Positions 26,214-62,533 of a stretch of 64,000 nt of DNA are shown here, piece by piece. The stretch's first letter is position 1; the number at the start of each line of letters is the position of its first letter. The notes under the pieces are model-generated. The model had not been told where the DNA came from and did no database searches. It saw nothing but the letters and a program-made list of their open reading frames with translations. Both the position numbers and the translations under genes were made by a program. Location of the stretch: the NCBI GenBank assembly GCA_023484045.1, contig JAMDAA010000015.1, forward strand, positions 8,659 to 72,658. Direction: 5' to 3'. This DNA comes from Patescibacteria group bacterium. Lineage in GTDB: Bacteria; Patescibacteriota; Microgenomatia; Levybacterales; UBA12049.

Positions 26214-26232
26214 GTCACACGTGGCTCAAGGC

Positions 26233-26904
26233 ATGAAAAAACTTTTCATAATTGCTAATTGGAAATCAAATAAAACAGAACATGAATCCATAAAATGGAT
26301 TCAAGAATTTCCAATTTCCTCCCGCTCAGCGGGACAATTTCCAAACAATAAAGAAATAATAATATGTCCTTCTTTTGTTTATCTCCCGCTTCTTAAATCA
26401 TATATCCTAGATCATAATTTACCGATAAAATTGGGGACACAGAATATTTCGAAATTTGACGAAGGTGCTTATACGGGCGAAATTAACGGAAAACAAATAA
26501 AAGACTTTGCCGATTACGTGATTATCGGTCATTCGGAAAGAAGACAAAATTTTTCCGAAAGTGAGGAGACGATTAATAAAAAAATCGAGCAGGCAAAAAA
26601 ATACAGACTAACGCCGATTCTCTGTGTCCAAAATCCAGATTTTAGAATTTCACAAAAGATAGAAATTATTGCTTACGAACCGGTTTTCGCAATCGGTACA
26701 AACTATCCGGACACGCCGGAAAATGCGAGTCTTGTCTCAGCTGAAATTAAGAAAAATAGTTTATCAAATCATGTTGTTTATGGAGGCAGCGTGACTTCGA
26801 AAAATGTAAAAGAATTTACCCAAAAATCTAATATCGACGGAGTTTTAGTCGGCAATGCAAGCTTAGATCCTCTCGAGTTTTTCGAAATCATAAAAAATGC
26901 GTAA
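26233..26904 (+). CDS. tpiA: Triosephosphate isomerase
   Basis: 'IIANWKSNK', catalytic 'IIGHSERR' and 'AYEPVFAIGT'. The ORF-track start at 26122 overlaps pcrA. The ATG at 26233 (MKKLFII...) is the real start. Confidence 0.85.
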   Translation: MKKLFIIANWKSNKTEHESIKWIQEFPISSRSAGQFPNNKEIIICPSFVYLPLLKSYILDHNLPIKLGTQNISKFDEGAYTGEINGKQIKDFADYVIIGHSERRQNFSESEETINKKIEQAKKYRLTPILCVQNPDFRISQKIEIIAYEPVFAIGTNYPDTPENASLVSAEIKKNSLSNHVVYGGSVTSKNVKEFTQKSNIDGVLVGNASLDPLEFFEIIKNA

Positions 26905-31647: not shown

Positions 31648-33271
31648 TTAGTATTTGAGATAGTGCTTCCTGAGTTAATCTTTTGGTGTTTTTAAAAATT
31701 ATTACTTTTGGATGATCGTATACTTGGAATGTTTCTTCGCTCGAATCATCTTTTATTGTCAATCCGAATAGCGAAGGATAAGAAGTAAATTCACCTACTT
31801 TTTTATATCCCAATTTTTTAGCAAAAAGCAATTTATAATATTTACTCGTGATCGGATATTTTTTATCGAGATTAATAAGAGTTCCGTATAATCGTCGACT
31901 ATTAATAACAATGTAATCAGCGGTTGATAATTTTTCAGTATAATAATTTATTTTATCGGAATTGTCAGGATCGTATATCGTTAATTGCTCGAATTGATAT
32001 TGGGCGGGGGAATAATTCTTAAAAGAAACAGGGAGGCCATCGTCCCAATGTTCTCCTAAGATTTTACTTCCACTCGGAATATTTTTATAAATCCATTTTG
32101 ACGCCGAAATTCGTGTTTGCTCTTTGACGTATATCGAGAAAAAAGCGAGCGCCCAAAAGATTGTTGTTATTGCGAAGAAATACAATAAAAATTTTCCAAT
32201 AAATTTTGTTTTTTTCGCGATAATATACAGGAGATAACTCGAAAAAATAATCAAAAAAGGTAAAATCGGCACCATAAAGCGTATGAATTTTGTGTGCCAC
32301 GAACCGACGTATAGAAAGTAGACGATCGGGAAAGATAATAAAATTATAAGTTTATAGTCTTTATTTTTTATAAGTTTAATAAAAATTAAGATTAATCCTA
32401 AAGGGATAATTATCGTAATTAATCCTAGTTGCCAGAAAAGATTTATAAACTGGAATAAATAAGAAGGCGTGTTAGTGAATTGAAGCGTATAAGGAACAAG
32501 TAGGGTTCCGAGCGCGACTCCTGATTCATAACGCATCGATTCGAGGAATTTATTCCAGGAAAAAAAAGTATACGGAGAAAAGATTATAAAAATACATAAA
32601 CTGATTATTAAATAAAAAATAAATAACGCGTTTTTTTTGATAAAGTTTTTCCGATCCAGAATTATGTTTATGAGATAAGCGGTTGTCGGCAAAATCAAAA
32701 AAGATAAAGCCGTTGTTTTTGCTGCGACAGCGAGCCCAGTAACGATACCACACCCAATATAATTTTTGAAGCTTGGCTTATTGAGTAGACTTAAAGACAA
32801 TAAAGAAATTATAACAACGGTCAATGCAAGAAAGTTTTCGGTTATTCCAAGATGCGACGTTTGTATAGAAGAAACAGAGAAGGTATAGAAAAAAGCAGAG
32901 ATTAAAGCAACTCTCTCATTAAAAAGTTTTTTTGCGAGAAGGTATAGAAAAAAGATGGTAATAGTAGAATAAAGTGCCGAATAAAATCTTGCAATTAAAT
33001 TAATGTGGCCCCAATCATAGGTCCAGATGGGATTATTAGTTACTCTTACCAGCATATCTCCGGTCGCGCGGATTAAATAAATCGAAAAACCGCCGTAAGC
33101 AAAAAAATCTGGATTTAATTGTTTGAAAAAAGAGATTCTCGTAACGGCATTTGCGATATTTCTTTCGTCGGGGTGAAACATGTTGCCCTGATCCCAATTA
33201 AGATTGTAAAATCTTAAAAAAGCCCCGATTAATAAAAAGACTATCAATATTATTTTTGTTTTAAATTTCAT
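31628..33271 (-). CDS. GT-C fold glycosyltransferase (ArnT/PMT_2-like)
   Basis: 'NMFHPDERNIANAVTRI' first-loop motif. About 13 TM segments and a C-terminal soluble domain. Confidence 0.65.
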   Translation of the reverse strand: MKFKTKIILIVFLLIGAFLRFYNLNWDQGNMFHPDERNIANAVTRISFFKQLNPDFFAYGGFSIYLIRATGDMLVRVTNNPIWTYDWGHINLIARFYSALYSTITIFFLYLLAKKLFNERVALISAFFYTFSVSSIQTSHLGITENFLALTVVIISLLSLSLLNKPSFKNYIGCGIVTGLAVAAKTTALSFLILPTTAYLINIILDRKNFIKKNALFIFYLIISLCIFIIFSPYTFFSWNKFLESMRYESGVALGTLLVPYTLQFTNTPSYLFQFINLFWQLGLITIIIPLGLILIFIKLIKNKDYKLIILLSFPIVYFLYVGSWHTKFIRFMVPILPFLIIFSSYLLYIIAKKTKFIGKFLLYFFAITTIFWALAFFSIYVKEQTRISASKWIYKNIPSGSKILGEHWDDGLPVSFKNYSPAQYQFEQLTIYDPDNSDKINYYTEKLSTADYIVINSRRLYGTLINLDKKYPITSKYYKLLFAKKLGYKKVGEFTSYPSLFGLTIKDDSSEETFQVYDHPKVIIFKNTKRLTQEALSQILNGENKN

Positions 33272-34538
33272 TTCTCTCGATCAATTTAGCTATTTTTTCT
33301 CCCATTTCAATAGCGTAATTTGTCCCCCGGTCCCATGGATAAACCTGTTCCATGTCTACGAGATAAACATTTTCTAAAGGAGTTTCACAAGGTAAAATAT
33401 TTTTTCCATAATTTGTGTCGACTACCGGTTGCGCAAATTCATCCTTAAACAAGCGGTAATCAACCAAAAATTCTTTATAATTTTTATTTATTTTTTTTAA
33501 AAAAGGATCATAAATTCTGATCAACTCATCTTTTGATTTTGAAAATAGTTTATCGTTGGATTGCAGATATTTTCCGAGATAGACAAGATGTTCATTATTA
33601 TAGTTACTCTTGTCGACGAAATTTGTGTGTTCGACGATCGCCATGATCGGCCAGGAGTTGTCGCAAATGCTTAGCCAGTATGTATTATCTTTTAAGAATT
33701 TTTCTTTAAGCCTCAATACTAAATTTAATACTCCGAGTGTTTTTATTTTTTCAGCCTTTTTTCGATAATCGTCCGGTAAGTTTTTTGTGATTTTTAGAAA
33801 TTGACGAGACGGAATTGTTACGATGACTTTATTAAATTCATAAAATTTATTAGCAGTCTTTATCGTGATTTTTTCATCGATTTTTTTTATTTCACTTACT
33901 TCACTTTTGAAAAAAACATTTCCTTTCAACACTTTAATTTTTTTTAAAATTGTATTTTCGAATTCTAAAAATCCGCCCTTTGGATAAGCGAGTTCTGTCG
34001 TACGTTTTTTAATTCTTGCCCAGAACCACGCTAAAGAAATATTTTTTGAAGAGTCGCCAAACTTGCCAATTAACTGAGGTTCCCAAATCATCCCGTAGGC
34101 TTTTTTACCCATCGCTTTCGGTAAAAAATCAGCGGTGTTTATATTCTCAAATATTTTCCAAAACGGATTAAATTTTAAGAAGGCCAAAACAGCAGCCATC
34201 CTTATTCTTTCAAAAATATTTAATTTCGAGAAACTTAATACTTTTGAAGGAGAATCGAGTTGATAAATTTTACCGTCGATGTAAACAGAAGTTTTTGGTC
34301 GGATTATTAAGACATCGTGCTCAATTTCTTTGGCAAAATTTAATGCGTTTTTGTCATTAGTAAAAAAATGATGGTAATACTTATCGAGCGTCCAGCGCCA
34401 ATTTTTTTCTTTAAATCCAGATGCGAGTCCGCCGGGTAAATCGCTCTTTTCAAAGATCGTTACGTCATGGCCTAATTTTAATAAATGTAAAGCTACTGAT
34501 AGTCCTTCGATTCCGGCGCCGATTATCGCGATTTTCAT
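33261..34538 (-). CDS. FAD/NAD(P)-binding Rossmann oxidoreductase (amine-oxidase/UDP-galactopyranose-mutase-like)
   Basis: 'MKIAIIGAGIEGLSVA...IFEKSDLPGGLASGF' dinucleotide-binding motif. 'YHHFFTNDKNALNF' resembles the Glf 'GPHIFHTN' region. The Glf-like call is tentative. Confidence 0.55.
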   Translation of the reverse strand: MKIAIIGAGIEGLSVALHLLKLGHDVTIFEKSDLPGGLASGFKEKNWRWTLDKYYHHFFTNDKNALNFAKEIEHDVLIIRPKTSVYIDGKIYQLDSPSKVLSFSKLNIFERIRMAAVLAFLKFNPFWKIFENINTADFLPKAMGKKAYGMIWEPQLIGKFGDSSKNISLAWFWARIKKRTTELAYPKGGFLEFENTILKKIKVLKGNVFFKSEVSEIKKIDEKITIKTANKFYEFNKVIVTIPSRQFLKITKNLPDDYRKKAEKIKTLGVLNLVLRLKEKFLKDNTYWLSICDNSWPIMAIVEHTNFVDKSNYNNEHLVYLGKYLQSNDKLFSKSKDELIRIYDPFLKKINKNYKEFLVDYRLFKDEFAQPVVDTNYGKNILPCETPLENVYLVDMEQVYPWDRGTNYAIEMGEKIAKLIERNEI

Positions 34539-38850: not shown

Positions 38851-39444
38851 TTATAAATTAACTCGTAGTTTTATCAGTTCTGTTTTTAATTGTTTTGGAT
38901 CATGAAAATGAATAGTATGAATATTTAGTTTCTTCGCCGCTTTTATATTTTCTAGCCAATCGTCGACAAAAATGCATTCTTGCGGGGTTACTTTAAGTTT
39001 TTTAAGAATTAATTCAAACGCTTTTAATTCTGGTTTACATATTCCTACTTCAAAAGAATACATTGTTGAGTGAAATAGCCTGTGATAATCAAATTTTTGT
39101 TCGCAATGTTCAACCCATTCTTTTGCGTGAACGGACAATAATCCGAGTCTATATCCGTTTTCTTTAAGCTTTTCGATAATTTCTCTAGTGCCTTTTATCT
39201 CGACCATGTTTTCGCGGATAAGCGCCTTTAATTTATTTGTGGTGATGTCCCATTTATATTTTTTTATTATTTTTTTCCAGTATTCTTCTTCTGTAATTTT
39301 CCCGTGAAATAACTGTTCTGATTCATCTTCGAAACATATTTTAGATGTTATTTCGGCCCCAGTAATTTTAGTTATCCTTTTTTCGATACCTCGCATTCCG
39401 GAAAAAAATACTTCCGATAAATCAAAAATAATTGTCGTAATCAT
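38851..39444 (-). CDS. HAD-superfamily hydrolase
   Basis: Motif I 'IIFDLSEV' (DxD/DxS nucleophile loop) and C-terminal 'FVDD' motif IV. Confidence 0.65.
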   Translation of the reverse strand: MITTIIFDLSEVFFSGMRGIEKRITKITGAEITSKICFEDESEQLFHGKITEEEYWKKIIKKYKWDITTNKLKALIRENMVEIKGTREIIEKLKENGYRLGLLSVHAKEWVEHCEQKFDYHRLFHSTMYSFEVGICKPELKAFELILKKLKVTPQECIFVDDWLENIKAAKKLNIHTIHFHDPKQLKTELIKLRVNL

Positions 39445-49058: not shown

Positions 49059-50717
<1,659 letters not shown>

Positions 50718-50757
50718 AAAAGATCAAAAATCAAACCTCAAAAATCAAAACTGATAA

Positions 50758-50780
50758 GAATCGCCGAAAGGCATTTTTTT
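50758..50780 (+). terminator. Weak intrinsic terminator after groEL (GCC-GAAA-GGC tetraloop hairpin + T7)
   Basis: Short stem with a GNRA loop, then 'TTTTTTT'. Low stability. Confidence 0.3.
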
Positions 50781-51017
50781 GACAACTTGTTTTTTTTGCT
50801 CGAAACACACTTTTTGTTTTCGCTCAGAATGTGATTTTTCTTGTCACCCACCTTTTGTCTGTTAATATCATTTGGTACCCAATAATTCATTACTTTGTAT
50901 TTTATAATATCAGCTATTTTATCATTCGTTCCTTCGAAAAATCACATTCCTCGCTCATCTATGTTAAAAATAAATACTTCAATAAACGTATTTTTTATGT
51001 TATATTAATTTCACTTT

Positions 51018-51851
51018 ATGCTAAAAAAACTTCTTCTCTATTTAACCCCTCTGGTACTTGCTTCGATTATTTTGGTAATTTTTATTTTTTACATAAATAA
51101 TAATTCAGGAAAGGGTGCTTTACAGGTAACTTCGGTTCCAAAAGCAGATGTTTATTTAAACGATAAATTAATCGGTCAAACGCCGCTTTGTAAATGTGAC
51201 CTATCCGATATGATTTCGGTCGGAGATTACACTGTCCGTCTTGTTCCGAAAGAAGACGGATTTTCTCCTTTTGAGGAAAAAATAAAAATAACAAAATCTA
51301 TTTTAACAGTTGTCGACAGAACTTTTGGAAAGGCGGGAAATTCCGAAGGAAGTGTTATATCGCTTGTCCCCCTTACCGATTCAAAAAAAACGGAGCTTAT
51401 GATTTTGTCTTTTCCGGACAACGCACGAGTTTTATTAGATAATAATTCCGTGGGTAATACGCCTCTTCTTTTAAAAGATATTACCGAATCGGATCACGAA
51501 ATAAGATTGGTAAAAGACGGTTACACTGAAAAAATGATTAAAATAAGGACAGTCGCCGGTTATAAACTCACGTTGCTCGGATTTTTGGGCGTAAACCTAA
51601 GTGAATTATCAGCACCGGTTGTTTTAACAATTACTCCTACTCCGATAGTAATCGTTTCAAAAATAAAAATTCTTCAGACGCAAACGGGATTTTTGAGGGT
51701 TCGGGAAACCGGTTCGCTAAATTCAGCAGAGATCGGAAAGGCCTATCCGGGAGAGGAATACGAAATTATAAAAGAAGAAAATGGTTGGTTTGAAATAAAG
51801 TTCAAAGACGTAACTGGCTGGGTTAATTCCCAATACGTCGCAAAGCAGTAG
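51018..51851 (+). CDS. PEGA-domain + bacterial SH3-domain membrane-anchored protein
   Basis: Two PEGA-like units ('VTSVPKADVYLNDKLIGQTP', 'ILSFPDNARVLLDNNSVGNTP'). C-terminal SH3b 'LRVRETGSLNSAEIGKAYPGEEYEII.EENGWFEI...GWVNSQYV'. Confidence 0.65.
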   Translation: MLKKLLLYLTPLVLASIILVIFIFYINNNSGKGALQVTSVPKADVYLNDKLIGQTPLCKCDLSDMISVGDYTVRLVPKEDGFSPFEEKIKITKSILTVVDRTFGKAGNSEGSVISLVPLTDSKKTELMILSFPDNARVLLDNNSVGNTPLLLKDITESDHEIRLVKDGYTEKMIKIRTVAGYKLTLLGFLGVNLSELSAPVVLTITPTPIVIVSKIKILQTQTGFLRVRETGSLNSAEIGKAYPGEEYEIIKEENGWFEIKFKDVTGWVNSQYVAKQ

Positions 51852-51854
51852 GGT

Positions 51855-52799
51855 TTACGACCCGATGGCATAGATAATGCCGATTACTAAGAAGAGCCAA
51901 ATTATAACGGTCGTTAAAAGCTGCTTATCTTCGATTAAAATTCTTTCGGGATTTTCGCCTTCTTGCTTTTCGTACATTACCTGCATATAACGCATAATTC
52001 CGTATACGACAGGAATAATAGTGATCATTAACCATTTCCTCTGAAAAAACGCAGGAAGAAAATCAGGTAAAAATAATCCAAAAGATATTTTAAACCCTTG
52101 CGGATTTTCCAAAAAAGTAAAAAGTGAATATGAGATAAAAGTCGAAGTCGCAAAAACCGAGAGATAAAGGTCCAAAAGTTTTTCTGAGTAATGGGAAAGC
52201 GCTTGTCGTGTTGAGTAGGCTTTTGATTCAAGATGTTGAGATATTAGTGCGAGTTCGGACCGTCTTTTGCCGACGGCGATAAAAAGCGAAATTGAAATCG
52301 TTGTTAATAAAAGCCATACAGAAATATGAAATCCAGAAGCGAACTCTCCTCCGTAAACTCTTAAAATATATCCTGCGGCAAGGGCTAAAATATCGATAAG
52401 CGCAATATTTTTCAAAAACATCGAGTAAGCGACCTGGAGAATCGCAAAAACGATAATCAAGATAAAAAACGCGGGTGTTACGTAATGACTTATTATAAGC
52501 GAAGCAACGCCTAAAATAACCGCGATTATAAGGCCTGTAGGAATCGAAATATCACCGTGGGCCAGGGGGCGGTATTTTTTAAAAGGGTGCAGTTTATCTT
52601 TTTTAATATCGAAAATATCGTTTATTATATATATCGCCGATGATAAAAAACAAAACGTAATAAAACCGAGTATTATTTTTTGAAGCACCAAAATTTCAAA
52701 AAGCTGTCCCGTGAACAGGATCGCCGGAAAGATCGCAAAGTTTTTAATCCATTGTCTCGGACGAAGAAGTCTTATTATGTTATATAATTTCTTTTTCAT
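51855..52799 (-). CDS. UbiA-family prenyltransferase, decaprenyl-phosphate phosphoribosyltransferase (DPPR synthase)-like
   Basis: N-terminal 'LLRPRQWIKNFAIF' typical of the Rv3806c-like DPPR synthase branch. Asp-rich motifs in 'DIFDIKKDK'. About 8 TM segments. Confidence 0.65.
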   Translation of the reverse strand: MKKKLYNIIRLLRPRQWIKNFAIFPAILFTGQLFEILVLQKIILGFITFCFLSSAIYIINDIFDIKKDKLHPFKKYRPLAHGDISIPTGLIIAVILGVASLIISHYVTPAFFILIIVFAILQVAYSMFLKNIALIDILALAAGYILRVYGGEFASGFHISVWLLLTTISISLFIAVGKRRSELALISQHLESKAYSTRQALSHYSEKLLDLYLSVFATSTFISYSLFTFLENPQGFKISFGLFLPDFLPAFFQRKWLMITIIPVVYGIMRYMQVMYEKQEGENPERILIEDKQLLTTVIIWLFLVIGIIYAIGS

Positions 52800-53868
52800 C
52801 TTTCTCCAAACTAAGATGTAAAAAAAGCAATAGTCCTCCGACGAGTACGATTAACATTAATATTGTAAAAATTTTCCCCTGGCTCGTTAAGCTCAGAGAA
52901 ATCGTTCCTAATATAGCAGAAATAACCCAGTAAAACAACGCGATCTGTCTTTGCCCAAAGCCTAAACTTAAAAGAATGTGATGAAGATGTTTATTATCGT
53001 GCCAGAAAGGTGATTTGCCGGAAAAAATTCTTCGAAGAATTGTGAATACCCCGTCGATCATCGGGATTCCCATAACAAGAATTGCCGTCGCGAGTTTTGC
53101 GCCGGATAGCATCGACGTTGCGGCCAAAAGTAGGTATAAAGAAGTAGCGCCATACCCAGGGAAAATTTTTGCAGGATAAAAATTAAAAATTAAAAAACCT
53201 AAACTAGCGCCTGCGATCGCAAAAGACAGGTTTGCCGAGATAAAGGTATCTTGTTCTGATATCGGAAAACGCAAACTTAAGATTCCGATCACGATCGCCG
53301 AGATTGCGACGATTCCGGGCATTTGTCCATCCACTCCTTTACTCCAATTTAACATGTTCATAACCCACGTGATCCAAAAAAGAGCGATTATATCGGCGAG
53401 CGATATCGTTAGACTCGCTCCTAAAAAAGACAGTGTCGTGTTTATCGAATCGAAATGAAGAATTCCGCCCGCAGGATTTGTTATAAAAGGTATGGTTATG
53501 CCGCTTGCGACTACCATCAGAGAAACAGCGATGTTTACAAAAAATCTTAAATATGGAGACAGATCAAATTTATCGTCTAAAACACCGATGACAAGCGCAA
53601 TAAAAGATGCAGAAAACAAAATTAACGTAGTTTGATTTAATGGGAGGAATATTATTCCGGCGACAAGAACTCCGAAAAAAAGCGGGATGCCACCGCCTCT
53701 TGGAATCGGTTTTTTATGAATAACGCCCGGATGTTTGTGTGTTTTTGGGTCGTCGACGATATTTAATTTTTTAAGAAAATAAATACAAATTGGCGTTATG
53801 AATACGGTTACGAAAAAAGCGACTAATAACGGTAGCACAAGAGAAAGATTATTACCGACGATTTGCAT
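52780..53868 (-). CDS. Polyprenyl-phosphate N-acetylhexosamine-1-phosphate transferase (WecA/MraY family)
   Basis: 'NIVDDPKTHKHPGVIHKKPIPRGGG', 'GVLDDKFDLSP', 'HLHHIL' (carbohydrate-recognition and HHH motifs of PNPT enzymes). Confidence 0.8.
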   Translation of the reverse strand: MQIVGNNLSLVLPLLVAFFVTVFITPICIYFLKKLNIVDDPKTHKHPGVIHKKPIPRGGGIPLFFGVLVAGIIFLPLNQTTLILFSASFIALVIGVLDDKFDLSPYLRFFVNIAVSLMVVASGITIPFITNPAGGILHFDSINTTLSFLGASLTISLADIIALFWITWVMNMLNWSKGVDGQMPGIVAISAIVIGILSLRFPISEQDTFISANLSFAIAGASLGFLIFNFYPAKIFPGYGATSLYLLLAATSMLSGAKLATAILVMGIPMIDGVFTILRRIFSGKSPFWHDNKHLHHILLSLGFGQRQIALFYWVISAILGTISLSLTSQGKIFTILMLIVLVGGLLLFLHLSLEKDEKEII

Positions 53869-53874
53869 AAATAA

Positions 53875-54237
53875 TTAAACTATGATTTGCACGGTTCTGA
53901 TAATAAAAAGAAAAACTAGAAAAGAAACTAAAAAACCGGTTGCAAAAATTAATCTTCCGATGAGCGGCATTTTTTGATAGATCGTATTCGAAAGCGTAAA
54001 ATTAATCCCCAAAAAAATAAACGCGATTGAGATCGGAATTAAAATCTCGAGTTTCGTTCCGAGTCTTTCCTCCCCCCAGGGCATTTGATTAAAAAGAGGT
54101 ATGAATGGCGGCATTTTTTGGTACGAAAAAAATATGATGGCGATGGTTAAAAAAATAAATAAAATCGTTCCAAAAAAAGATGCAAAAATAATTCTGTCGG
54201 CAAAAGCCTTTTTAAAAAAGTCGTTCATAAATAACAC
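53875..54237 (-). CDS. Small 3-TM membrane protein
   Basis: 120 aa, between the WecA-like and GT-C genes in the same operon. Confidence 0.4.
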   Translation of the reverse strand: MLFMNDFFKKAFADRIIFASFFGTILFIFLTIAIIFFSYQKMPPFIPLFNQMPWGEERLGTKLEILIPISIAFIFLGINFTLSNTIYQKMPLIGRLIFATGFLVSFLVFLFIIRTVQIIV

Positions 54238-55669
54238 TATTTCCGATACTTATCCATTGTCTGTAACCGTTTAGTTCATATGGAACTGGATTGTTCGGGG
54301 AAGTGATAATGATAAATTTAGGATTTATTTTTTCTAGGTCCATTTTTGTTTCGTCAATATTATTACTTTTCATCGAAATATGATAGGCAACGATGAATTT
54401 TCCCGGCGGTAATTTATTTACGAGTTTATACACCTGCGCATTGTTTCCCCAGATGAAAAGATTATCTTTCCCGATCCTGTTTTTAATGAATTGAGCGAGT
54501 TCGTAATCGATTGGAGTTTGTTTATCAAAAAATTCCTGATAAGAGTAAACGCTTTCTTGATTAAGCACAAAAGATAAATAATTTTGGTAGTAGGCTATAT
54601 TTTTATCATATAATTTAAAGTTACTCAAAATTAAAATAATAACGGCGATAAATAAAACGGATATCAATTTCGAATATTTCTTGTCGAAAAAAATAAGCCC
54701 GATCATTAAAGAGAAACTTGGAAGAAGCATTAAAAGATAATGAGTATAAGGTCTTTGCGCAAAAAATGCGCTGAATGTCGAAAACAAAAACCACAATAAA
54801 ATAAATATTGTTGCGGGATTCATTTTATCTCTTTTTTTAAACAGAAAAAAAATAAAACCCGATAAAATTATAAGTTTTATAATTAACAATCCTTGCGGTA
54901 TTAATAGTTTGTTTCCGTATCCGATATAACCGACGTTTTGTATAAATACAGCAGTATAAAAATCCCAGAAAGCGCCTTTTATAAAGAAAAACAAAAAAGC
55001 GAAAATGATCGGGATAAAAAAACCGAGTAAAAATGGATAAACTTTTTTTATTAAGGCAGTTAAATGTTGTCTTTTATAGTTAATAAATATTAAAGAAAGC
55101 AAGAAAGCGGTAAATTCAAATACGGCAACAACTTTAAATAAAAATGCGACAGATAATAAAAGTCCGGAAGTAAAAAGAATCATTTTGGGTAACTTATGAA
55201 ATTCGCTTTGAGTTAATTTAAATAGTAAAAAAGCAGATAATATAATCGGAAGAAGCATAAAATTTTCTGCGTTTGCGATATTGCCTTCGATTATCGGCAA
55301 GCCAAAAAAAAGGGCAAAAAAAGAAGTGGAAACAAAAACAATCTTTTTATTTTCAAATAGCGTCTTTGCTAGATGGAAAAAGACGATTACAGATGAAAGA
55401 CCGACGATTAAAGATACAAATCTTAACATAAATTGGTCAGAAGAAAAAAATGAATAGAGTAGATACAAGAGAGGAGGTTTGTTGTCCCAAATATCTCTGT
55501 ATAACAGTCTATTGTTATTTATGCCCATTCCGACTACTTGATATATTCCTTCGTCGCCGTACCAATATGGTTCAAAAAGAGAAGGTAATCTTAAGAAAAA
55601 AAACACAAATAATATAGAAAGTAAAAACCAACAGTTTCGGCTTTTTTCGAGTCGTGCAAGTTTTTTCAT
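54212..55669 (-). CDS. GT-C fold glycosyltransferase (ArnT/PMT_2-like)
   Basis: 'YWYGDEGIYQVVGMGINNNRLLYRDIWDNKPPL' DE-loop. More than 10 TM segments and a C-terminal soluble domain. Confidence 0.65.
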   Translation of the reverse strand: MKKLARLEKSRNCWFLLSILFVFFFLRLPSLFEPYWYGDEGIYQVVGMGINNNRLLYRDIWDNKPPLLYLLYSFFSSDQFMLRFVSLIVGLSSVIVFFHLAKTLFENKKIVFVSTSFFALFFGLPIIEGNIANAENFMLLPIILSAFLLFKLTQSEFHKLPKMILFTSGLLLSVAFLFKVVAVFEFTAFLLSLIFINYKRQHLTALIKKVYPFLLGFFIPIIFAFLFFFIKGAFWDFYTAVFIQNVGYIGYGNKLLIPQGLLIIKLIILSGFIFFLFKKRDKMNPATIFILLWFLFSTFSAFFAQRPYTHYLLMLLPSFSLMIGLIFFDKKYSKLISVLFIAVIILILSNFKLYDKNIAYYQNYLSFVLNQESVYSYQEFFDKQTPIDYELAQFIKNRIGKDNLFIWGNNAQVYKLVNKLPPGKFIVAYHISMKSNNIDETKMDLEKINPKFIIITSPNNPVPYELNGYRQWISIGNSVIYERLF

Positions 55670-55679
55670 TCTCTATAAA

Positions 55680-57173
55680 TTATAGTTTCTCGGTGACTTT
55701 GTATTCAAGTCGCTTCCCAAACATGAGTTGCGTGTGAGATATTAAAGCCGGAAGAGCGGTCAGAAAAAATCCGACGATCGGTAAAAGTACAAATTCGAGC
55801 GGGAAAATAAACTGCCGCTTTATCGAAACAGAAGAATTTTTCGGCCGGCTTTTGTAATCAATAATGATCATCGCAAGGAGCGAAAAAAGACAGGATGTTA
55901 ATATGAAACCGGCGAGTCTTGGCAGGTTATAGCCGATCGCGGTTCTTGAGAAAACAGGATTGACTAAAGGAATAATATTGGCAGCGATTGTTACGATGAA
56001 CCAGTTAACCGGCCAAAGAATGTGATCGAGTAAAACATTGTAAAGAATTATGGTCTTTTTAAAAAATGGGACTCCCGGAACAGTTAACCACCATTTGATA
56101 AAAAGAGGATTGTCAGACGCGCCCCATGACCACCTGCGTTCTTGCTGATATTTATTTTTCAAACTTTTTATATAACTTGTAGAAAGCGCGGCATCCATAG
56201 ACGTTCTTAAAAATATCGGTACAACAGAAACATCTCCCTTTAACGCGTAAAACGCTTTAAAAAATATTCTGTAATCTTCGGGGATAACGTCGACGTCCCA
56301 AAAGCCAATATTTTTTAAAGTCAAAAATGATAAAGTGTACGTCGAATTTGTTATTAGTCTGTTACCTTGAAGTAAAACTCCTGTTCTCCAAAGACTTCCG
56401 AAAAACGAAACGATTCTAGTCGGCGCAGGAACTTTCCAGATATTGTTGTAATAAACTGTTGCCGATTGCCAAAAAAGATGGTGTCTATTTGGGTGAATTA
56501 AAAAGCTATGGGTTAAGTACGCAAAATATTGTCGGTCGAAAATTGAGTCCGCATCGACAGACGAAACCGTTGTGTAATTTATATCAATGATACCTCCTTC
56601 AACGAGTCTTTTGTACGCTTCTTTTCCGGCAAAAGCCTCATTAGATGATTTTCCTTTTATTTCTCCAAGAATATCGGGATGGTAGGCCGCGAATATGTCT
56701 CCGAAATTTTTCTTAAATTTGTTTATAAGATAATCAGCTTTTTCTTTAGCTTCTTTTTCTCTTTCTTCCATGCCTAAGACGATATAGATCTGTTTTGTGG
56801 GTAAGGTTTGATCTGCGATCGCTTTAATCGTGATTTCGAGTTTCGTTACGCTTTCTGTGTAATTTGGGATTACTATAATGTGGCTTACTTTATCAAATTT
56901 ATCCAATTGTTTAGCTTTTTTTAGCCAATCTTCTTTTTCTGCTTCTCTAATTTTTTTGGATGCGATATAGGCCGTGATCGTGAGAGAGAAAGACTTATAA
57001 AACCAATATACATCGAAAAAAACGATAAAATAGGCGATTATATAGGGCGCAAAAAGCGATCCCCATATAGGAGATAATATTAAAATCCAAACTATAAGTC
57101 CCGATAAAATTTCGATTGTGCGTATCGTCTTAATCGGATAACGGTCAAATATTTTTTTAAAAAAACCGGTCAT
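55680..57173 (-). CDS. Membrane-embedded processive family-2 glycosyltransferase (cellulose/chitin-synthase-like, QxxRW)
   Basis: N-terminal TMs, 'IIVIPNYTE' (UDP-binding), 'SSVDADS' (DxD), 'QQERRWSWG' (Q-x-x-R-W), C-terminal TMs. Confidence 0.7.
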   Translation of the reverse strand: MTGFFKKIFDRYPIKTIRTIEILSGLIVWILILSPIWGSLFAPYIIAYFIVFFDVYWFYKSFSLTITAYIASKKIREAEKEDWLKKAKQLDKFDKVSHIIVIPNYTESVTKLEITIKAIADQTLPTKQIYIVLGMEEREKEAKEKADYLINKFKKNFGDIFAAYHPDILGEIKGKSSNEAFAGKEAYKRLVEGGIIDINYTTVSSVDADSIFDRQYFAYLTHSFLIHPNRHHLFWQSATVYYNNIWKVPAPTRIVSFFGSLWRTGVLLQGNRLITNSTYTLSFLTLKNIGFWDVDVIPEDYRIFFKAFYALKGDVSVVPIFLRTSMDAALSTSYIKSLKNKYQQERRWSWGASDNPLFIKWWLTVPGVPFFKKTIILYNVLLDHILWPVNWFIVTIAANIIPLVNPVFSRTAIGYNLPRLAGFILTSCLFSLLAMIIIDYKSRPKNSSVSIKRQFIFPLEFVLLPIVGFFLTALPALISHTQLMFGKRLEYKVTEKL

Positions 57174-57182
57174 ATTTTGATT

Positions 57183-57983
57183 TTAATCTTTTATAATAAA
57201 AAGAGTAAGAGTGTTTTTTATTGTTTGTTCTTTGACTTTTTCAAAGGGAATATTTTTAATTTTTGCGATCGATTCAGCCACTATTATAACATACTCTGGG
57301 CTATTTCTCGTACCCCGATGAGGTTCCGGAGTTAAAAAAGGGCTGTCTGTTTCTGTTAAAATCCGGTCGATCGGCGCGAACTTTGCAAGATCTTTAAGGC
57401 TAGTCGTTTCTCCTTTTGCTAAACCTTTGTAAGTTATGTTTCCATCGAATCCAATATAAAAGCCAAGATTAAGCACTTTCTTCAGGAATTCAATGTCTCC
57501 CGAAAAACAATGGAATACGCCCGGCGGATTTAAAAGATAAGATTTATGATTCAAGAGAATTTCTAAGATTTCTTTTCCTGCATGACGGTTATGGATTTGG
57601 AGCGGAAGTTCTAATTTATGCGCGATTTCGATTTGTTTTATAAATAAGGATTTCTGATTTTTTTGATCTGTAATTCCATTTGATTCATAATTAAAAAAAT
57701 CCAACCCGATTTCTCCGATCGCGACGACTTTTGGATGCTTTGCAAGTTCCTCAAGCTTATATATCCAATTCTTTTCGAGTTTGTCGGCATGATGAGGATG
57801 AATTCCGACGGTTGCGTAAAGCCCATCATATTTTTCAGCGATTTCAATAGCCTTTTTACTCGAATCAAGATCAGCTCCGACGTTAATAATTTTTGTAATC
57901 CCAGCTGCAAATGCCTTTTTAATCACTTCATCAACATCTTTTTCAAAAGCATGGAAATTCAAATGACAATGGGTATCGACCAT
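57183..57983 (-). CDS. tatD: TatD-family metal-dependent deoxyribonuclease
   Basis: 'MVDTHCHLNF', 'GEIGLDF', 'LPLQIHNR', 'GVFHCFSG', 'TETDSPFL'. Confidence 0.9.
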   Translation of the reverse strand: MVDTHCHLNFHAFEKDVDEVIKKAFAAGITKIINVGADLDSSKKAIEIAEKYDGLYATVGIHPHHADKLEKNWIYKLEELAKHPKVVAIGEIGLDFFNYESNGITDQKNQKSLFIKQIEIAHKLELPLQIHNRHAGKEILEILLNHKSYLLNPPGVFHCFSGDIEFLKKVLNLGFYIGFDGNITYKGLAKGETTSLKDLAKFAPIDRILTETDSPFLTPEPHRGTRNSPEYVIIVAESIAKIKNIPFEKVKEQTIKNTLTLFIIKD

Positions 57984-58061
57984 AATATTTAAAGAAAAGA
58001 TTATTGTTTTTTCTTGACAGACGAGATATAATATCCTACTCTGTAAATATAGATAAATAAC

Positions 58062-58259
58062 ATGAAAAAAACAACTCTTGGGAAAAGGTATACGATCTCA
58101 AAAAGTAAAATTCCAATAGCATACCTTATTGATTACATAAAGGAGGGTTTATCGATCTCTGATTTTATTTCTTCCTATCCATGGTTAAAGAAAAAAGATG
58201 TTGAGGATGCATTAGATGAAATAAAAAAGAGAGAATTTACCTCTCGATATGCCATCTAA
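58062..58259 (+). CDS. DUF433 family protein (antitoxin-like partner)
   Basis: 'IAYLIDYIKEGLSISDFISSYPWLKKKDVEDALDEI' matches the DUF433 pattern '..G.S.EEI...YP.LT.EDI.AAL'. Confidence 0.6.
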   Translation: MKKTTLGKRYTISKSKIPIAYLIDYIKEGLSISDFISSYPWLKKKDVEDALDEIKKREFTSRYAI

Positions 58260-58653
58260 AAAACCTCGTATTCAACTTTACGCTGACGAGTGTTTTCCTG
58301 TTCCCTCCGCAACTTATTTGAAATCGTTAGGTTATTCTGTGGTACATGCTTATGATAGAAACTATATCAAAAGAAGTGATTATTTCCACTTTTCAGTAAG
58401 TAAGAAATTAAACAGAACTCTTATAACTTTAGATCGCGACTTTATTAAATACGGAAAATTAAACGTGGAAAATTCTTTGGGAATTATTATTATTTCTACA
58501 GGAACTGCTACTTATTTGAGTGTTAATAAGGTTTGTAATAAATTATTAAAATTAATCAGCGAAGATTTTGTTAAAAATTCTTTAATCAAAGTGACTATAG
58601 ACAAGATAATTAAAATAAAGAATGGAAAAGTTGTAATGGAGAAAAAGCTGTAA
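58249..58653 (+). CDS. DUF5615 (PIN-like/Mut7-C fold) protein, toxin-like partner of the DUF433 protein
   Basis: 'IQLYADECFP...LKSLGYSVVHA' and 'RTLITLDRDF' fit DUF5615. Overlaps the DUF433 gene by 11 bp. Confidence 0.55.
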   Translation: MPSKKPRIQLYADECFPVPSATYLKSLGYSVVHAYDRNYIKRSDYFHFSVSKKLNRTLITLDRDFIKYGKLNVENSLGIIIISTGTATYLSVNKVCNKLLKLISEDFVKNSLIKVTIDKIIKIKNGKVVMEKKL

Positions 58654-58699
58654 TTTAAATTAAACTTTTATCAACTTTTAGGTATAATTATTTACAATT

Positions 58700-59230
58700 A
58701 TGAAAATAGTGGTTGGGTCGAAAAATCCGACAAAAATACAAGCAGCAAAAGAAGCATTTTTGATGGTTTTTCCGAATAAAAAATGGGAAGTCGTTGGGAT
58801 TGATGTTGAATCTGGGGTCGTAAGCCAGCCGATGAGCGATGACGAAAGCATAAAAGGCGCCAGAAACAGGGCAAAAGCTGCGATAAAAAAAATTAAGGCA
58901 AATTATGGGGTTGGACTCGAAGGCGGATTACAAAAAATCGATGGAATGTGGTTTGATTGCGGATGGATCGTAATTATTGATAAAGAAGGAAACGAAGGGA
59001 TTGGGTCGACGATAAAAATGCACACGCCAAAGAAATTCATGAAACTTATAGATAAGGGCATAGAACTGGGTATTGTAAACGACATGATATTTAAGACAAA
59101 AAACTCAAAACACGCCGAAGGGCACTTCGGGCTAATGACGAATGGAGCGATTACTAGAACAAAAGGCTATAGAGACGGAGTTATTTCGGCCCTTAGCCGA
59201 TTCATCCATCCGGAATTATTTAAAAAATGA
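58700..59230 (+). CDS. Non-canonical purine NTP phosphatase (YjjX/DUF84, inosine/xanthosine triphosphatase-like)
   Basis: 'MKIVVGSKNPTKIQAAKEAF' N-terminal P-loop-like motif of YjjX. About 175 aa. Confidence 0.65.
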   Translation: MKIVVGSKNPTKIQAAKEAFLMVFPNKKWEVVGIDVESGVVSQPMSDDESIKGARNRAKAAIKKIKANYGVGLEGGLQKIDGMWFDCGWIVIIDKEGNEGIGSTIKMHTPKKFMKLIDKGIELGIVNDMIFKTKNSKHAEGHFGLMTNGAITRTKGYRDGVISALSRFIHPELFKK

Positions 59231-59298
59231 GAGTAGTTAAATAGAAAGGGTGTAAAGCTATAACACTTGAAGGGTGTGAAGTACATAAGAACCTATAG

Positions 59299-60129
59299 TT
59301 GCATTGGATAGGCAATTATGCCATAATCCTTTTTCTACTTATGTCACTGCCAGAGCCCGAAGCAAAAGCTATCAAGGAAAGAATCGCTGAACATGAAAAT
59401 ACAGCAGAGATTCTTTGGGGGCAAGGAAGTACAGCATACTGCGGTGTTCCCATCAAGTTACATCCAGAGTTTAAAAGGGCTTTTATCAGAAGACAGCCTT
59501 TTTTTAAAGATCAGTTTCCTAAACGCCAATTTCATAAAATGACAGATAGTTTATGCGTGTGCATTGATAAAAGTACCTCATTACTCGCTGCTTTTCCAGG
59601 ATTACAAATAGCTTTTGAAGACAAAACTGCTAAGTTTGGAACTACTAGTACAGAAGTTGTTGTAAACGGTGCTTATATTGCTACTATACAATCACAAACA
59701 ATATATATCTCATCAATCGAGCGACCGGAAGAATCGGTAGAGGATGTTTTTTCTCATGAGTTTGGTCACCACATCCACTTTTATTTTACTCCGGAGCAGC
59801 ATATGGAGTTTTTTGAGCGACAACAATGGTATGTAGGTGACGGTCGTTACCGAAGAGTCGCAACGCCAAGTGATATTATCTCTGAAAAATACACCAATAA
59901 AGAGATAAGTACGCCGCGTTGGGAGCTATTCGACAAGTATGGAATAATAAGAAATCAATATAGATATGTTCATCCACATGAAATGGTCGCTACGGTCGTT
60001 GAGGAAAATTGGAGAAACTTACTACAATTTCTTCAGTTAACTGGTGAATCCAACCAAACAGGAATAATTAGGTTTATTCTAGATAAAATTCCTTTGGTTC
60101 CAAATAGTACATCTGAAATTAGAACTTAA
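59299..60129 (+). CDS. Hypothetical HExxH-motif protein (putative metallopeptidase-like), possibly secreted
   Basis: 'FSHEFGHHIHFYF'. Hydrophobic N-terminus. Codon usage looks slightly GC-richer than its neighbours (qualitative). Confidence 0.45.
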   Translation: MHWIGNYAIILFLLMSLPEPEAKAIKERIAEHENTAEILWGQGSTAYCGVPIKLHPEFKRAFIRRQPFFKDQFPKRQFHKMTDSLCVCIDKSTSLLAAFPGLQIAFEDKTAKFGTTSTEVVVNGAYIATIQSQTIYISSIERPEESVEDVFSHEFGHHIHFYFTPEQHMEFFERQQWYVGDGRYRRVATPSDIISEKYTNKEISTPRWELFDKYGIIRNQYRYVHPHEMVATVVEENWRNLLQFLQLTGESNQTGIIRFILDKIPLVPNSTSEIRT

Positions 60130-60171
60130 TTGAATACTATTTAGAGAAAAAGATTTGCATTTCAGAATAAC

Positions 60172-61581
60172 TTAAATTCTTGGGAAAAGGGGAGGTTGAG
60201 ATTTAATCTGATTTTCAGAAAATTGTTTTTCGATTTTTTCGGCAGTTTCGGGCAAGAAAGGTTTTAGATTAAATGCGATATTTTGAATTTCAATAACATA
60301 GTTTTTTAATTTATTTTTCGCCTCATCCCTGTTTAATTCCCACGGTTTTTCTTCGTTAATTTTTTTATCAACATCTGTTATTTTTCTCCAAATCTCTTTT
60401 AATCCATCGTTTAATCGATATTCACGAATCGCTTTTTCGACATTTTCGTCAAATTTCACTTCAAAATTTTCCCCCTCGACTCCATTTTTTTCGCAAAGTT
60501 TTGCGACTCGAGCAACTAAGTTTCCCAATCCATTTGCTAAATCAGAATTATAAGCTTGTTTTAATTTTTCTTCTGAAACATCACTGTCTTCGGTTACTGT
60601 GCAATAGCGCAAAAGATAATATCTCACGCCGTCTGTCCCATATTTTTTAACCCATTCAGAAGGTCGAATAATATTACCAAGAGATTTACTGATTTTTTCG
60701 CCGTTTAATTTTAAAAATCCATTAACAAGAATTGTCTTTGGAAGTTCGATTCCCGCTGATTTTAGCATCGCCGGCCACAAAAGCGAATGCCAGCGCAGAT
60801 TATCTTTTCCTAAAACATGAACGTCAGCCGGCCAGAATTTTTCAAACAGAGTTTCGTCTTCCAAAAAACCAACGCCGGTTAAATAATTTATTAATGCGTC
60901 AAACCAAACGTAAATTACCTGACCTGGATCATTTGGTACTTTAATTCCCCAGGTAAAATTAGTGCGTGATACAGGAACATCTTTAATGTTTTTTGCAAAT
61001 TCGAGCATTTCGTTTCTCCGCGCTTTTGGAAAAATAGAATCTTGATTTTTTTTGATGTGGTCGATCAAAAAATTGCTATATTTTGACCATTTAAAAAAAT
61101 AATTTTTTTCTGTTATTTTTTTAACTTCAAGATTTAAATGAAGGGGACATTTCCCGTTTTTTAGATCATCTTCAAAATAATACGCCTCGCACCCTTCACA
61201 ATATATTCCCGTGTATTCTCCGAGATAAATGTCATCGTTATTATTCACCCTGTTCCATATTTCCGAAACTACTTTTTCGTGATCTGGATCGGTTGTTCTT
61301 ATAAACCTGTCATAAGAAATATTTAGAGAATCTTGTTCTTTTTGATCGGTGTCAGAGATCTCTTTTACGAACTCGGCAGGGGAAACACCCTTGTCTTTTG
61401 CCGCTTTTTCCGATTTTTTGCCATACTCGTCCGTGCCGGTTAGAAAAAAAACATTTTCTTTTCCGATTTTTATTCGATAGTACCGCGCTAAAACATCGGC
61501 GATTATCTTTTGAAAAGCGTGGCCGATGTGGATAGTGTCGTTTACGTAATCGATAGCTGTTGTTACATAAAATTTATTCAT
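60172..61581 (-). CDS. metG: Methionine--tRNA ligase (short form)
   Basis: 'YVTTAIDYVNDTIHIGHA' (HIGH), Zn-knuckle 'CEGCEAYYFEDDLKNGKCPLH', 'KISKSLGN' (KMSKS). Confidence 0.9.
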   Translation of the reverse strand: MNKFYVTTAIDYVNDTIHIGHAFQKIIADVLARYYRIKIGKENVFFLTGTDEYGKKSEKAAKDKGVSPAEFVKEISDTDQKEQDSLNISYDRFIRTTDPDHEKVVSEIWNRVNNNDDIYLGEYTGIYCEGCEAYYFEDDLKNGKCPLHLNLEVKKITEKNYFFKWSKYSNFLIDHIKKNQDSIFPKARRNEMLEFAKNIKDVPVSRTNFTWGIKVPNDPGQVIYVWFDALINYLTGVGFLEDETLFEKFWPADVHVLGKDNLRWHSLLWPAMLKSAGIELPKTILVNGFLKLNGEKISKSLGNIIRPSEWVKKYGTDGVRYYLLRYCTVTEDSDVSEEKLKQAYNSDLANGLGNLVARVAKLCEKNGVEGENFEVKFDENVEKAIREYRLNDGLKEIWRKITDVDKKINEEKPWELNRDEAKNKLKNYVIEIQNIAFNLKPFLPETAEKIEKQFSENQIKSQPPLFPRI

Positions 61582-61651
61582 ATATTAAGAAATTCTACCA
61601 GAAAATGAGATTACACACAACGATTATAGTTCAATGATTTGAACCATTAAA

Positions 61652-62110
61652 CTATAATAAATGTCTTCGGAGTCTTCTTTTGAATATTTCCTTTCCTTTT
61701 TTTTGTTTCTTTTCAAATCCTATACTGCCATACATTTTTGGAGGAGATAGTTTAAGCAGTAATTCCTCTATTTTATCGACAAACTCTTCTTTTTTCTGAT
61801 TCACAAAAATTTTATTAATGACTTTTTGATATCCGCTTTTGCCATGTTTTAGAAAGTAGGAAACATTCATAATGGTCGGTCTTGAAACTTTTATTTTATC
61901 GACTATTTCGTCGTAAGTATAATTTCTTGAAAGAAGTATCGCTATGGCCAACCGCTTTGTTAACATAACCTTTTCTGTTGGAGAGAGAAGGTCTTCTATG
62001 AAATTTTGGGCGTCGGTCGGATTTTTAAGTTCTATAACCGTTTCGATAAATAATCGAAAAATAGATTCCGCGAGCTCCCTATTAAGAATTCTTCTAGATA
62101 TTCTCCCCAT
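61652..62110 (-). CDS. TrpR/YerC/YecD-family small DNA-binding protein
   Basis: 'EDLLSPTEKVMLTKRLAIAILLSRNYTYDEIVDKIKVSRPTIMNVSYFLKHG' is a TrpR-like HTH core. Confidence 0.6.
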   Translation of the reverse strand: MGRISRRILNRELAESIFRLFIETVIELKNPTDAQNFIEDLLSPTEKVMLTKRLAIAILLSRNYTYDEIVDKIKVSRPTIMNVSYFLKHGKSGYQKVINKIFVNQKKEEFVDKIEELLLKLSPPKMYGSIGFEKKQKKGKEIFKRRLRRHLL

Positions 62111-62194
62111 TCAGTTCAATAGTTTGAACCATTGAACTAAATTTGTCAAGATTTAATATTTCAATATTAAGATTCATTAAGATTATTGTTAAGA

Positions 62195-62533
62195 TTATTG
62201 CTTGCGGCTGAAGAAAAGCTCGATGGTTAGAAAGAGCGCGATTAAAACGATTAGAAAGAATACATGTGTTAAGTTCAATAGTCTTAAAATAAGAAAACTT
62301 ATAACAAATAATCCAAGCAGTAATCCCCGTCGAAAGTTACTCAAAACTAAAGCTATCAAAAAACTGATTAGAAAAAATAAGGTTGTTAAAAATAAGGGAA
62401 TGATCGGGATTTTAAGATCGAATAAAGATAATTTAGAATCAGGAGACAAAAATAATAACAAATATAAAAATAACCCCAAAAAAATAATAGTTGAGAGTAA
62501 ATTAATAAACCTCTGCCTTCTTTTCTTCCGCAT
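62195..62533 (-). CDS. Small polytopic membrane protein
   Basis: 112 aa, 3-4 TM segments. Preferred over the Lys-rich antisense ORF at 62202..62546. Confidence 0.35.
   Translation of the reverse strand: MRKKRRQRFINLLSTIIFLGLFLYLLLFLSPDSKLSLFDLKIPIIPLFLTTLFFLISFLIALVLSNFRRGLLLGLFVISFLILRLLNLTHVFFLIVLIALFLTIELFFSRKQ

Follow-up and report, generated by a model that had tools for sequence, protein, structure and literature searches.

We analysed a 64 kb window of a 76,673-nt contig (JAMDAA010000015.1) from a metagenome-assembled genome that is deposited under the label 'Patescibacteria group bacterium', and describe here a compact unit of six genes on its minus strand, at positions 51855-57983, which points to the synthesis of a pentose-containing surface glycan. 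The GC content of the window is 31-42%, and the nearest relatives of its proteins are found in Candidatus Levybacteria/Levyibacteriota, so that the genome belongs to the candidate phyla radiation (CPR). In the order in which they are read, the genes encode a TatD-family hydrolase (57183-57983; PF01026, E=2e-83; TIGR00010), a synthase-type glycosyltransferase of family 2 (GT2; 497 aa, 55680-57173; PF13632, 27.2 bits against a cut-off of 27), a PMT_2 / GT39-like glycosyltransferase of the GT-C fold class (485 aa, 54212-55669; PF13231 PMT_2, 27.3 bits against a cut-off of 26.1, with a weak match to PF02366), an orphan protein of 117 aa without a family match (MCL5438694.1, 53875-54228), a polyprenyl-phosphate N-acetylhexosamine-1-phosphate transferase (PNPT) of WecA/TagO type (362 aa, 52780-53868; PF00953, E=8e-23), and a UbiA-fold protein (314 aa, 51855-52799; PF01040, NF008978) of the type known as decaprenyl-phosphate 5-phosphoribosyltransferase (DPPR synthase, DPPRS) or polyprenyl-phosphate phosphoribosyltransferase (PPPRS). 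All five open reading frames (ORFs) that a preliminary description had placed on the minus strand are present; that description left out TatD, which lies 9 nt upstream of the GT2 start and heads the unit. The GenBank entries for the cluster carry locus tags M1268_* and protein accessions MCL5438692-96, and the pipeline already names two of these five proteins, the UbiA protein and the PNPT, correctly.

The spacing of the six genes is tight, with successive gaps of 9, 10, -17, 6 and -20 nt. As had been noted before, the stop of the PNPT gene overlaps the start of the UbiA gene by 20 nt (52780-52799); a GGAG sequence stands 4 nt ahead of the UbiA ATG. A second overlap, between the stop of the GT-C gene and the start of the small gene, was originally drawn as 54212-54237; the sequence and the GenBank start shorten it from 26 to 17 nt (54212-54228), since the most likely start is the ATG at 54228 and not position 54237. 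This start gives a protein of 117 aa, which agrees with GenBank and with 63 orthologues of that length. The gene calls of one relative (locus L081) repeat both overlaps, at 17 and 20 nt, and this conservation makes translational coupling plausible. A consensus scan of 50700-62200 gave 32 promoter-like matches against 37.6 in shuffled sequence and 11 terminator-like matches against 9.5, and is uninformative about the transcript. Immediately beyond the UbiA gene, on the plus strand and with 3 nt between the two stop codons, lies a convergent gene for a protein with an N-terminal membrane anchor, a PEGA domain and a wall-binding SH3b domain (51018-51851; PF08308, E=6e-19; PF08239, E=5e-12), which may be associated with the wall or may itself become glycosylated.

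Scanning the GTDB species representatives gave 80 related loci, in which gene order was read by tblastn and ORF clustering. In 62 of the 63 Levybacteria loci long enough to hold all five glycan genes, these are colinear, compact and on the same strand, the sole exception (L060) having an insertion between GT2 and GT-C; the arrangement is therefore not due to chance. Essentially all Levybacteria loci share the full order of TatD, GT2, GT-C, small protein, PNPT and UbiA with the convergent PEGA/SH3b gene, TatD keeping its position in about 60 related loci and PEGA/SH3b being convergent to UbiA in 72. Conservation extends in part to Woesebacteria, where one locus (L073) keeps GT2, GT-C, a small ORF, PNPT and UbiA. 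Median identity across Levybacteria is 68% for GT2, 64% for the PNPT, 65% for the UbiA protein, 51% for the GT-C and 42% for the small protein, compared with 72% for GroEL, and the closeness of the first three values to that of GroEL argues for a core function. Neighbours that recur in the conserved flanks (10 kb to either side in 81 loci) are TatD, methionyl-tRNA synthetase, PEGA/SH3, GroES/EL, a PKD protein, LepA and MurJ. The cluster is thus a core, strongly constrained operon and not a variable serotype island. The earlier reading of the genes as an envelope glycan operon is a reasonable inference from this phylum-wide synteny, and its four enzyme calls survived the analyses that follow.

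The UbiA-fold protein had been linked to the DPPR synthase branch by the motif LLRPRQWIKN, which occupies residues 11-20, and by all sequence tests that we ran it is a polyprenyl-phosphate phosphoribosyltransferase. Among the three NCBIfam models for decaprenyl-phosphate phosphoribosyltransferases it scores 214.7 bits with NF008978, above the cut-off of 207, and stays below the cut-offs of NF008977 (223 bits, cut-off 234) and NF008976 (164 bits, cut-off 474). With NF006088, a profile of 482 positions, it reaches 170 bits (cut-off 351) and aligns to positions 190-410 only, the N-terminal part of that profile being taken to be a fused HAD phosphatase domain. Neither a grouping with menaquinone or heme-O prenyltransferases nor a loss of DPPR synthase residues, the two signs of misassignment named at the outset, was found: all other NCBIfam prenyltransferase models (heme O synthase, UbiA, chlorophyll synthase, GGGP-type and others) give at most 58 bits against 215-223 for the DPPR synthase models, and the residues are kept. 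In the PDB, the match to Rv3806c of Mycobacterium tuberculosis (8j8j; query residues 7-307 to chain residues 16-296) has E=4e-39, while the next UbiA structure, AfUbiA (4tq3), follows at E=2e-6.

In Rv3806c, phosphoribosyl pyrophosphate (PRPP) is contacted by R22, K28, Y70, N73, D77, K87, R90, Q135, Y138, K143, Y157 and K208, and the phosphoribose-binding residues among them are not conserved in other UbiA enzymes (PMC10994848). When these contacts are mapped through the HMMER alignment, 11 of the 12 are identical in the window protein, where the first eleven correspond in the same order to R13, K19, Y57, N60, D64, K74, R77, Q122, Y125, K130 and Y144. The identical residues include the binders of the ribose and its 5'-phosphate (K19, Y57, N60, Q122 and Y144, conserved in 66-72 of 72 orthologues), the Mg site D64, and the pyrophosphate cluster R13, K74, R77, Y125 and K130. 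The twelfth contact, K208, is replaced by Gln199, next to a conserved R198, and is Lys in 48 of the 72 orthologues, which include archaeal, deltaproteobacterial and acidobacterial members. The window protein thus resembles Rv3806c in its full-length homology, its NDxxD Mg site (N60/D64), its ribose/5'-phosphate binders, its Lys/Arg pyrophosphate cluster and its lack of a fused phosphatase, and differs from it by the K208 replacement and by an 18-residue insertion ahead of the last helices. Judged by its sequence, its product is almost certainly a lipid-linked ribose donor, comparable to that on which mycobacteria draw for their wall.

The PNPT, which the preliminary description had placed in the WecA/MraY family, is a member of the PF00953 family, and its model scores mark it as WecA/TagO-like rather than MraY-like. 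The Asp-Asp Mg site (LDDK, at 97), the NxxNxxxGxDG signature (NMLNW..GVDG, 171-181) and an HLHH motif (294) in the place of HIHH, the sugar-recognition motif of WecA, are all present. Its scores lie below the cut-offs of both equivalog models, with 104 bits for TIGR02380 wecA (cut-off 326) and 46 bits for TIGR00445 mraY (cut-off 192), so that it is unlike WecA itself in this respect and is a family member, not an equivalog; among the structures in the PDB it comes closest to those of MraY (E=5e-12).

The GT2 had been called a processive enzyme of the QxxRW kind, of which the motif and the synthase type stand, and processivity is a prediction. The protein begins with two TM (transmembrane) helices, continues with a cytoplasmic GT-A domain and an interface helix that bears QERRW, and ends in further TM helices; the residues D207-A-D209, E299-D300 and Q344-E-R-R-W348 are invariant in 39 homologues. 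An AlphaFold2 model with a pLDDT of 78.7 finds its best PDB fold matches in the Chlorella virus and Xenopus hyaluronan synthases, BcsA, PcManGT and Chs1 (E=7e-9 to 1e-5, TM-scores 0.43-0.49), which supports a synthase-type assignment. The DxD, ED and QxxRW motifs, the helix layout and these matches are shared with hyaluronan synthase, BcsA and chitin synthase. Unlike these synthases, to which its identity is only 9-15% and its TM-scores are only 0.43-0.49, the window enzyme has an invariant MEExE segment in place of the usual DDG nucleotide-binding motif, and it lacks partner subunits and a cyclic di-GMP-binding (PilZ) domain. It may instead be a single-addition enzyme like PcManGT that acts on the product of the PNPT. 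We also considered a polyprenyl-phosphate-hexose synthase of the GtrB/DPM1 type and rejected it on account of the QxxRW motif, the synthase-like TM layout and the absence of GtrB/DPMS from the top 50 fold matches.

The GT-C/ArnT-like call is likewise borne out, both by the PF13231 score just above its cut-off and by structure. The AlphaFold2 model (pLDDT 90.1, pTM 0.90) matches AglB, STT3, Pmt4, DPY19, PglB and ArnT in a Foldseek search of the PDB (E=1e-5 to 2e-3), with a probability of 1.00 to ten GT-C structures; AftD comes no closer than E=0.24, and neither Emb nor AftA is among the matches listed. Across 40 homologues the residues D39-E40 in the loop after TM1, D62-N-K-P66, E128-GNIANAEN-136 and R306/H310/Y311 are invariant. 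By the positive-inside rule the D39-E40 loop would face outward, and its invariance is what an active GT-C enzyme would show. A small C-terminal alpha/beta domain is also predicted to lie outside the membrane. BLAST finds no similarity between it and the products of the other GT-C genes that the window carries.

For the 117-aa protein three TM helices are predicted; it carries a strongly conserved loop, PPxIPxFNQxPWG, and is present in 63 related loci. As a single sequence it has no Pfam or NCBIfam match, a Pfam scan of 40 orthologues at E-values up to 5 returned noise with no consistent match, its profile has no match in the PDB, and hhalign finds no similarity to a GtrA protein of Lactococcus. 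A phmmer search collected 439 representative homologues, all of them stand-alone proteins of about 117 aa, with no fusion protein among them. We regard this orphan as a candidate accessory subunit or flippase.

Taken together, we favour the reading that Levybacteria (Microgenomatia, CPR) have here a housekeeping operon for an envelope glycan that works by the pathway set out below, with a rough probability of 55%. Gene identities, conserved catalytic residues, folds and synteny are observed; the PRPP activity, the substrates including ribose, the acceptor and the supply of this GT-C by the UbiA product are proposed. In the order of steps that we infer, the PNPT would transfer an N-acetylhexosamine 1-phosphate, probably N-acetylglucosamine 1-phosphate, onto polyprenyl phosphate at the cytoplasmic face and so prime a lipid-linked glycan, and the GT2 would lengthen a beta-linked chain and possibly export it. 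The UbiA-fold enzyme would meanwhile transfer 5-phosphoribose from PRPP to polyprenyl phosphate, and removal of the 5'-phosphate and flipping would yield polyprenyl-phosphate-ribofuranose at the outer face as the donor of the GT-C. For the flipping, or for assistance to the GT-C, the orphan three-helix protein would be the only candidate within the operon. Outside the membrane the GT-C would attach the pentofuranose to this glycan or to some different acceptor in the envelope, and a LytR-CpsA-Psr (LCP) ligase, of the kind that joins glycopolymers to peptidoglycan, encoded 24 kb from the operon at 26897-27991, could attach the polymer to the wall.

A mechanism of this class has already been established by experiment, in mycobacteria, Pseudomonas and Citrobacter. 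Systems in which a PPPRS works with a GT-C are documented in Pseudomonas and Citrobacter and predicted in Gram-positives, and extracytoplasmic pentofuranosylation of this kind was reported in 2024 to be widespread, including in Gram-positives and a phage (PMC11127046). The logic of the operon is therefore not restricted to Actinobacteria, and the word 'undescribed' in the preliminary description fits the lineage and the glycan, not the mechanism. The three-component system of Citrobacter youngae (ORF15, PPPRS-PRP; ORF14, MATE; ORF12, GT136; Kelly et al. 2024, PMC11127046) resembles the Levybacteria operon in encoding a PRPP-dependent polyprenyl-phosphate-ribose synthase with a GT-C, here two genes apart in one compact unit, and in having no DprE1/E2. 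The two differ in that the Levybacteria operon lacks both a HAD-PRP domain and a flippase of the MATE or GtrA type, in its PMT_2-like GT-C, and in being a lineage-wide core operon joined to a PNPT and a synthase-type GT2, where the Citrobacter genes form an accessory serotype island.

A second point of comparison is the exopolysaccharide locus of the Lactococcus cremoris plasmid pF27D (locus L082, 7587-12650), which encodes a hypothetical 462-aa membrane protein, a DPPRS, a HAD-IB phosphatase and a GtrA, with an LCP gene nearby, and which looks by gene content like a complete lipid-linked pentofuranose module. The plasmid, too, sets a DPPRS homologue (30% identity) among polysaccharide genes in a monoderm of low GC content, whereas the explicit phosphatase and GtrA flippase of the plasmid are missing from the Levybacteria operon; between the window GT-C and the 462-aa protein neither hhalign nor BLAST detects similarity. 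DPPRS homologues are also carried by plasmids of haloarchaea, Bacteroidota, cyanobacteria and actinomycetes. In M. tuberculosis a GT-C enzyme, the DPPRS and a GT2 polymerase are likewise encoded side by side, in the locus aftB-ubiA-Rv3807c-glfT2; unlike the Rv3806c locus, the present one has no adjacent PAP2 phosphatase (the equivalent of Rv3807c), no DprE1/E2 and no equivalent of the GtrA-like Rv3789. What is new here is the lineage, the core-operon status, the fixed link to a PNPT and a synthase-type GT2, the orphan three-helix protein and the fact that the usual accessory genes appear to be absent.

This absence is the first of several points that weigh against our interpretation. Known polyprenyl-phosphate-pentofuranose pathways need a 5'-phosphatase and a flippase, and those that use arabinose or xylose also need epimerases (PMC11127046). 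Neither the operon nor its conserved flanks contain a 5'-phosphatase (HAD-PRP or PAP2), a recognised flippase (GtrA, SMR or MATE) or a recurrent epimerase. Among the 63 ORFs of the 64 kb window that we scanned with Pfam such partners are missing as well; the sole HAD protein there is a generic HAD-IA at 38851-39444, about 13 kb from the operon and without similarity to the Lactococcus HAD-IB phosphatase; a MurJ homologue lies 10 kb away. As seen in the operon, its conserved flanks and the window, the pathway is incomplete, although other parts of the genome could encode a phosphatase. A match to the GT-C fold, moreover, does not reveal the sugar donor. At least three more full-length genes for PMT_2-type GT-Cs lie in the window (21923-23293, 30139-31647 and 31628-33271), and these, a PMT_2 fragment and a DUF2298 protein (27972-30158) are equally candidates to use the UbiA product. 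A GT2 of the synthase type can normally do without a primer made by a PNPT, and the four enzymes may thus not belong to a single linear pathway; the co-conservation of TatD, which probably has no role in glycan synthesis, is a reminder that synteny in small genomes is not proof of shared function. Finally, when the literature was searched for pentofuranose pathways or DPPR synthases of CPR bacteria, Patescibacteria or Levybacteria, nothing relevant came up, and no biochemistry of a CPR homologue.

The operon may instead bring together separate pathways, the PNPT making, for example, a wall-polymer linkage unit, the GT2 acting as an exopolysaccharide synthase, and the GT-C using a hexose, with the UbiA product feeding GT-Cs elsewhere. 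The additional GT-C and DUF2298 genes, the usual independence of synthase-type GT2 enzymes from a PNPT and the presence of TatD without an obvious functional link are all in keeping with this view, as is the L060 locus, where genes for a GalE-like epimerase and for a homologue of the DUF2298 protein follow 2-4 kb downstream of the UbiA gene. It accounts less readily for five glycan-related membrane proteins in a fixed order with overlapping frames in 62 of 63 loci and in Woesebacteria, and no other lipid-sugar synthase is encoded beside the operon GT-C. We consider such a division into separate pathways rather unlikely, though ahead of the other alternatives.

Somewhat less probable still, in our view, is protein O-glycosylation, in which the GT-C would place a lipid-linked pentofuranose on pilins, on wall or S-layer proteins, or possibly on the PEGA/SH3b protein. 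There is a precedent in Pseudomonas, where TfpW puts arabinofuranose on pilin (PMC11127046). The GT-C matches the O-mannosyltransferase families PMT_2 and PMT, with folds that include oligosaccharyltransferases and Pmt4; the PEGA/SH3b surface protein invariably adjoins the operon, and pilus genes such as PilO occur in the window. However, the PMT_2 family is broad and includes enzymes that modify lipids and glycans, and the PNPT and synthase-type GT2 within the unit suggest a glycan as the acceptor.

The notion that the operon follows the same logic as the polyprenyl-phosphate-pentose donors of Actinobacteria holds in so far as a DPPRS and a GT-C share one unit, and is not supported for an arabinan-like pathway, in which the lipid-linked ribose would be epimerised to arabinofuranose and the GT-C would be an arabinofuranosyltransferase. 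The homology of the UbiA protein to Rv3806c speaks for an arabinan, as do the enzyme classes of the operon, which match the arabinogalactan set (PNPT/WecA, GT2 polymerase, DPPRS and GT-C). No DprE1-type (FAD_binding_4) or DprE2-type (adh_short) protein was found, however, in the operon, the conserved flanks or the Pfam-scanned window ORFs, whereas complete decaprenyl-phosphate-arabinose (DPA) modules hold those genes beside the DPPRS, as on a Flammeovirgaceae plasmid where it adjoins a FAD oxidoreductase and a short-chain dehydrogenase/reductase (SDR). Together with a fold nearer to oligosaccharyltransferase, PMT and ArnT than to AftD, Emb or AftA, this makes the arabinan, for which epimerases would have to be encoded elsewhere, very improbable, and by the framework of PMC11127046 the lack of DprE1/E2 makes ribofuranose likelier than arabinose. 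An adh_short gene near the cluster in L081 was discarded as a candidate, being neither a recurrent neighbour nor matched by a counterpart in the window. An ordinary role of the UbiA protein, as a prenyltransferase for aromatic compounds or isoprenoids of the MenA, UbiA, heme O or chlorophyll synthase type, as its Pfam family and the naming of some Joint Genome Institute (JGI) homologues as 4-hydroxybenzoate polyprenyltransferase might suggest, is effectively refuted by the model scores, the gap between Rv3806c and AfUbiA and the conserved phosphoribose-binding residues described above.

Returning to the favoured reading of a housekeeping envelope-glycan operon, its near-unchanged form across the lineage, with conservation close to that of GroEL, suggests that its product is probably a core surface structure. 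CPR or Patescibacteria are largely uncultured and host-dependent, with tiny genomes, and next to no knowledge exists of their envelope chemistry. Should the product of the UbiA enzyme be lipid-linked ribofuranose, these cells would spend PRPP on a pentofuranose-bearing envelope glycan, which could mediate attachment to the host; the operon would provide ribofuranose or a related pentose as a chemical marker, together with a set of enzymes that can be tested, and would extend the PPPRS and GT-C pathway to a major uncultured radiation. It also singles out a conserved orphan membrane protein as a candidate for a missing component. One could also speculate, although we think it doubtful, that a minimal machine of five proteins makes a wall-linked and essential ribofuranose glycopolymer in Levybacteria and possibly in wider Microgenomatia, with the 117-aa orphan in place of a flippase or accessory subunit and with a PMT_2-type GT-C, unrelated to Aft, Emb or GT136, as the pentofuranosyltransferase and possibly the polymerase. 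Such a ribofuranose glycopolymer would be a hitherto unknown component of the CPR envelope and a marker of the lineage.

Several variations and neighbouring genes deserve mention. In the Woesebacteria locus L073 a GalE-like NAD-dependent epimerase (5995-6933, minus strand) is inserted inside the cluster, and in L060 the similar epimerase and the DUF2298 homologue are encoded on the plus strand at 12093-13211 and 13918-16212; these SDR proteins could be ordinary nucleotide-sugar epimerases or ORF13-like ribose-to-xylose epimerases as in Citrobacter O2. In about eight loci (L016, L023, L025, L026, L028, L035, L040 and L051) PyrF-like and PyrE-like genes, recognised from sequence motifs only, lie just downstream of the cluster, between PEGA and GroEL. 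PyrE is orotate phosphoribosyltransferase, another user of PRPP, and this adjacency is probably coincidental. Upstream of the unit, and divergent from the TatD promoter region, two genes, one for a protein of 65 aa and one for a DUF5615 protein of 134 aa (58062-58653, plus strand), overlap by 11 nt in a toxin-antitoxin-like arrangement, of which only one related locus has a counterpart.

A second envelope operon occupies 27972-34538 on the minus strand and encodes the DUF2298/Chlor_Arch_YYY protein (728 aa), two PMT_2-type GT-Cs of 502 and 547 aa, and a FAD-dependent oxidoreductase (NF005560, 425 aa) with an amine-oxidase/CrtI-like fold. A homologue of this flavoprotein (31% identity, E=5e-53) is encoded directly upstream of a DPPRS homologue in a deltaproteobacterial metagenome-assembled genome (L075, 2147-3226), and it possibly acts on polyprenyl-linked substrates, as a non-orthologous substitute for DprE1 or as a modifier of the lipid carrier. 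Adjacent to this operon, a run of wall-related genes (21923-27991) comprises the PMT_2/GT87-like GT-C at 21923-23293, a FemAB-family peptidyl transferase (23290-24342) and the LCP ligase, with a UvrD helicase between them. Further away, a 151-aa ORF (3035-3490, plus strand) matches the distal PMT_2 domain only and follows a 145-aa ORF without a Pfam match (2385-2822); it looks like a truncated GT-C and may be a disrupted gene or an assembly error.

Two membrane proteins of the SfLAP family (Sap, sulfolipid-1-addressing protein; 7075-7728 and 10378-11082), unexpected for CPR, flank an amidase of the choloylglycine hydrolase family (9288-10304). A nickel superoxide dismutase gene followed by one for an S26-type peptidase (20633-21400, plus strand) resembles a sodN-sodX pair, and the dismutase implies exposure to oxygen.

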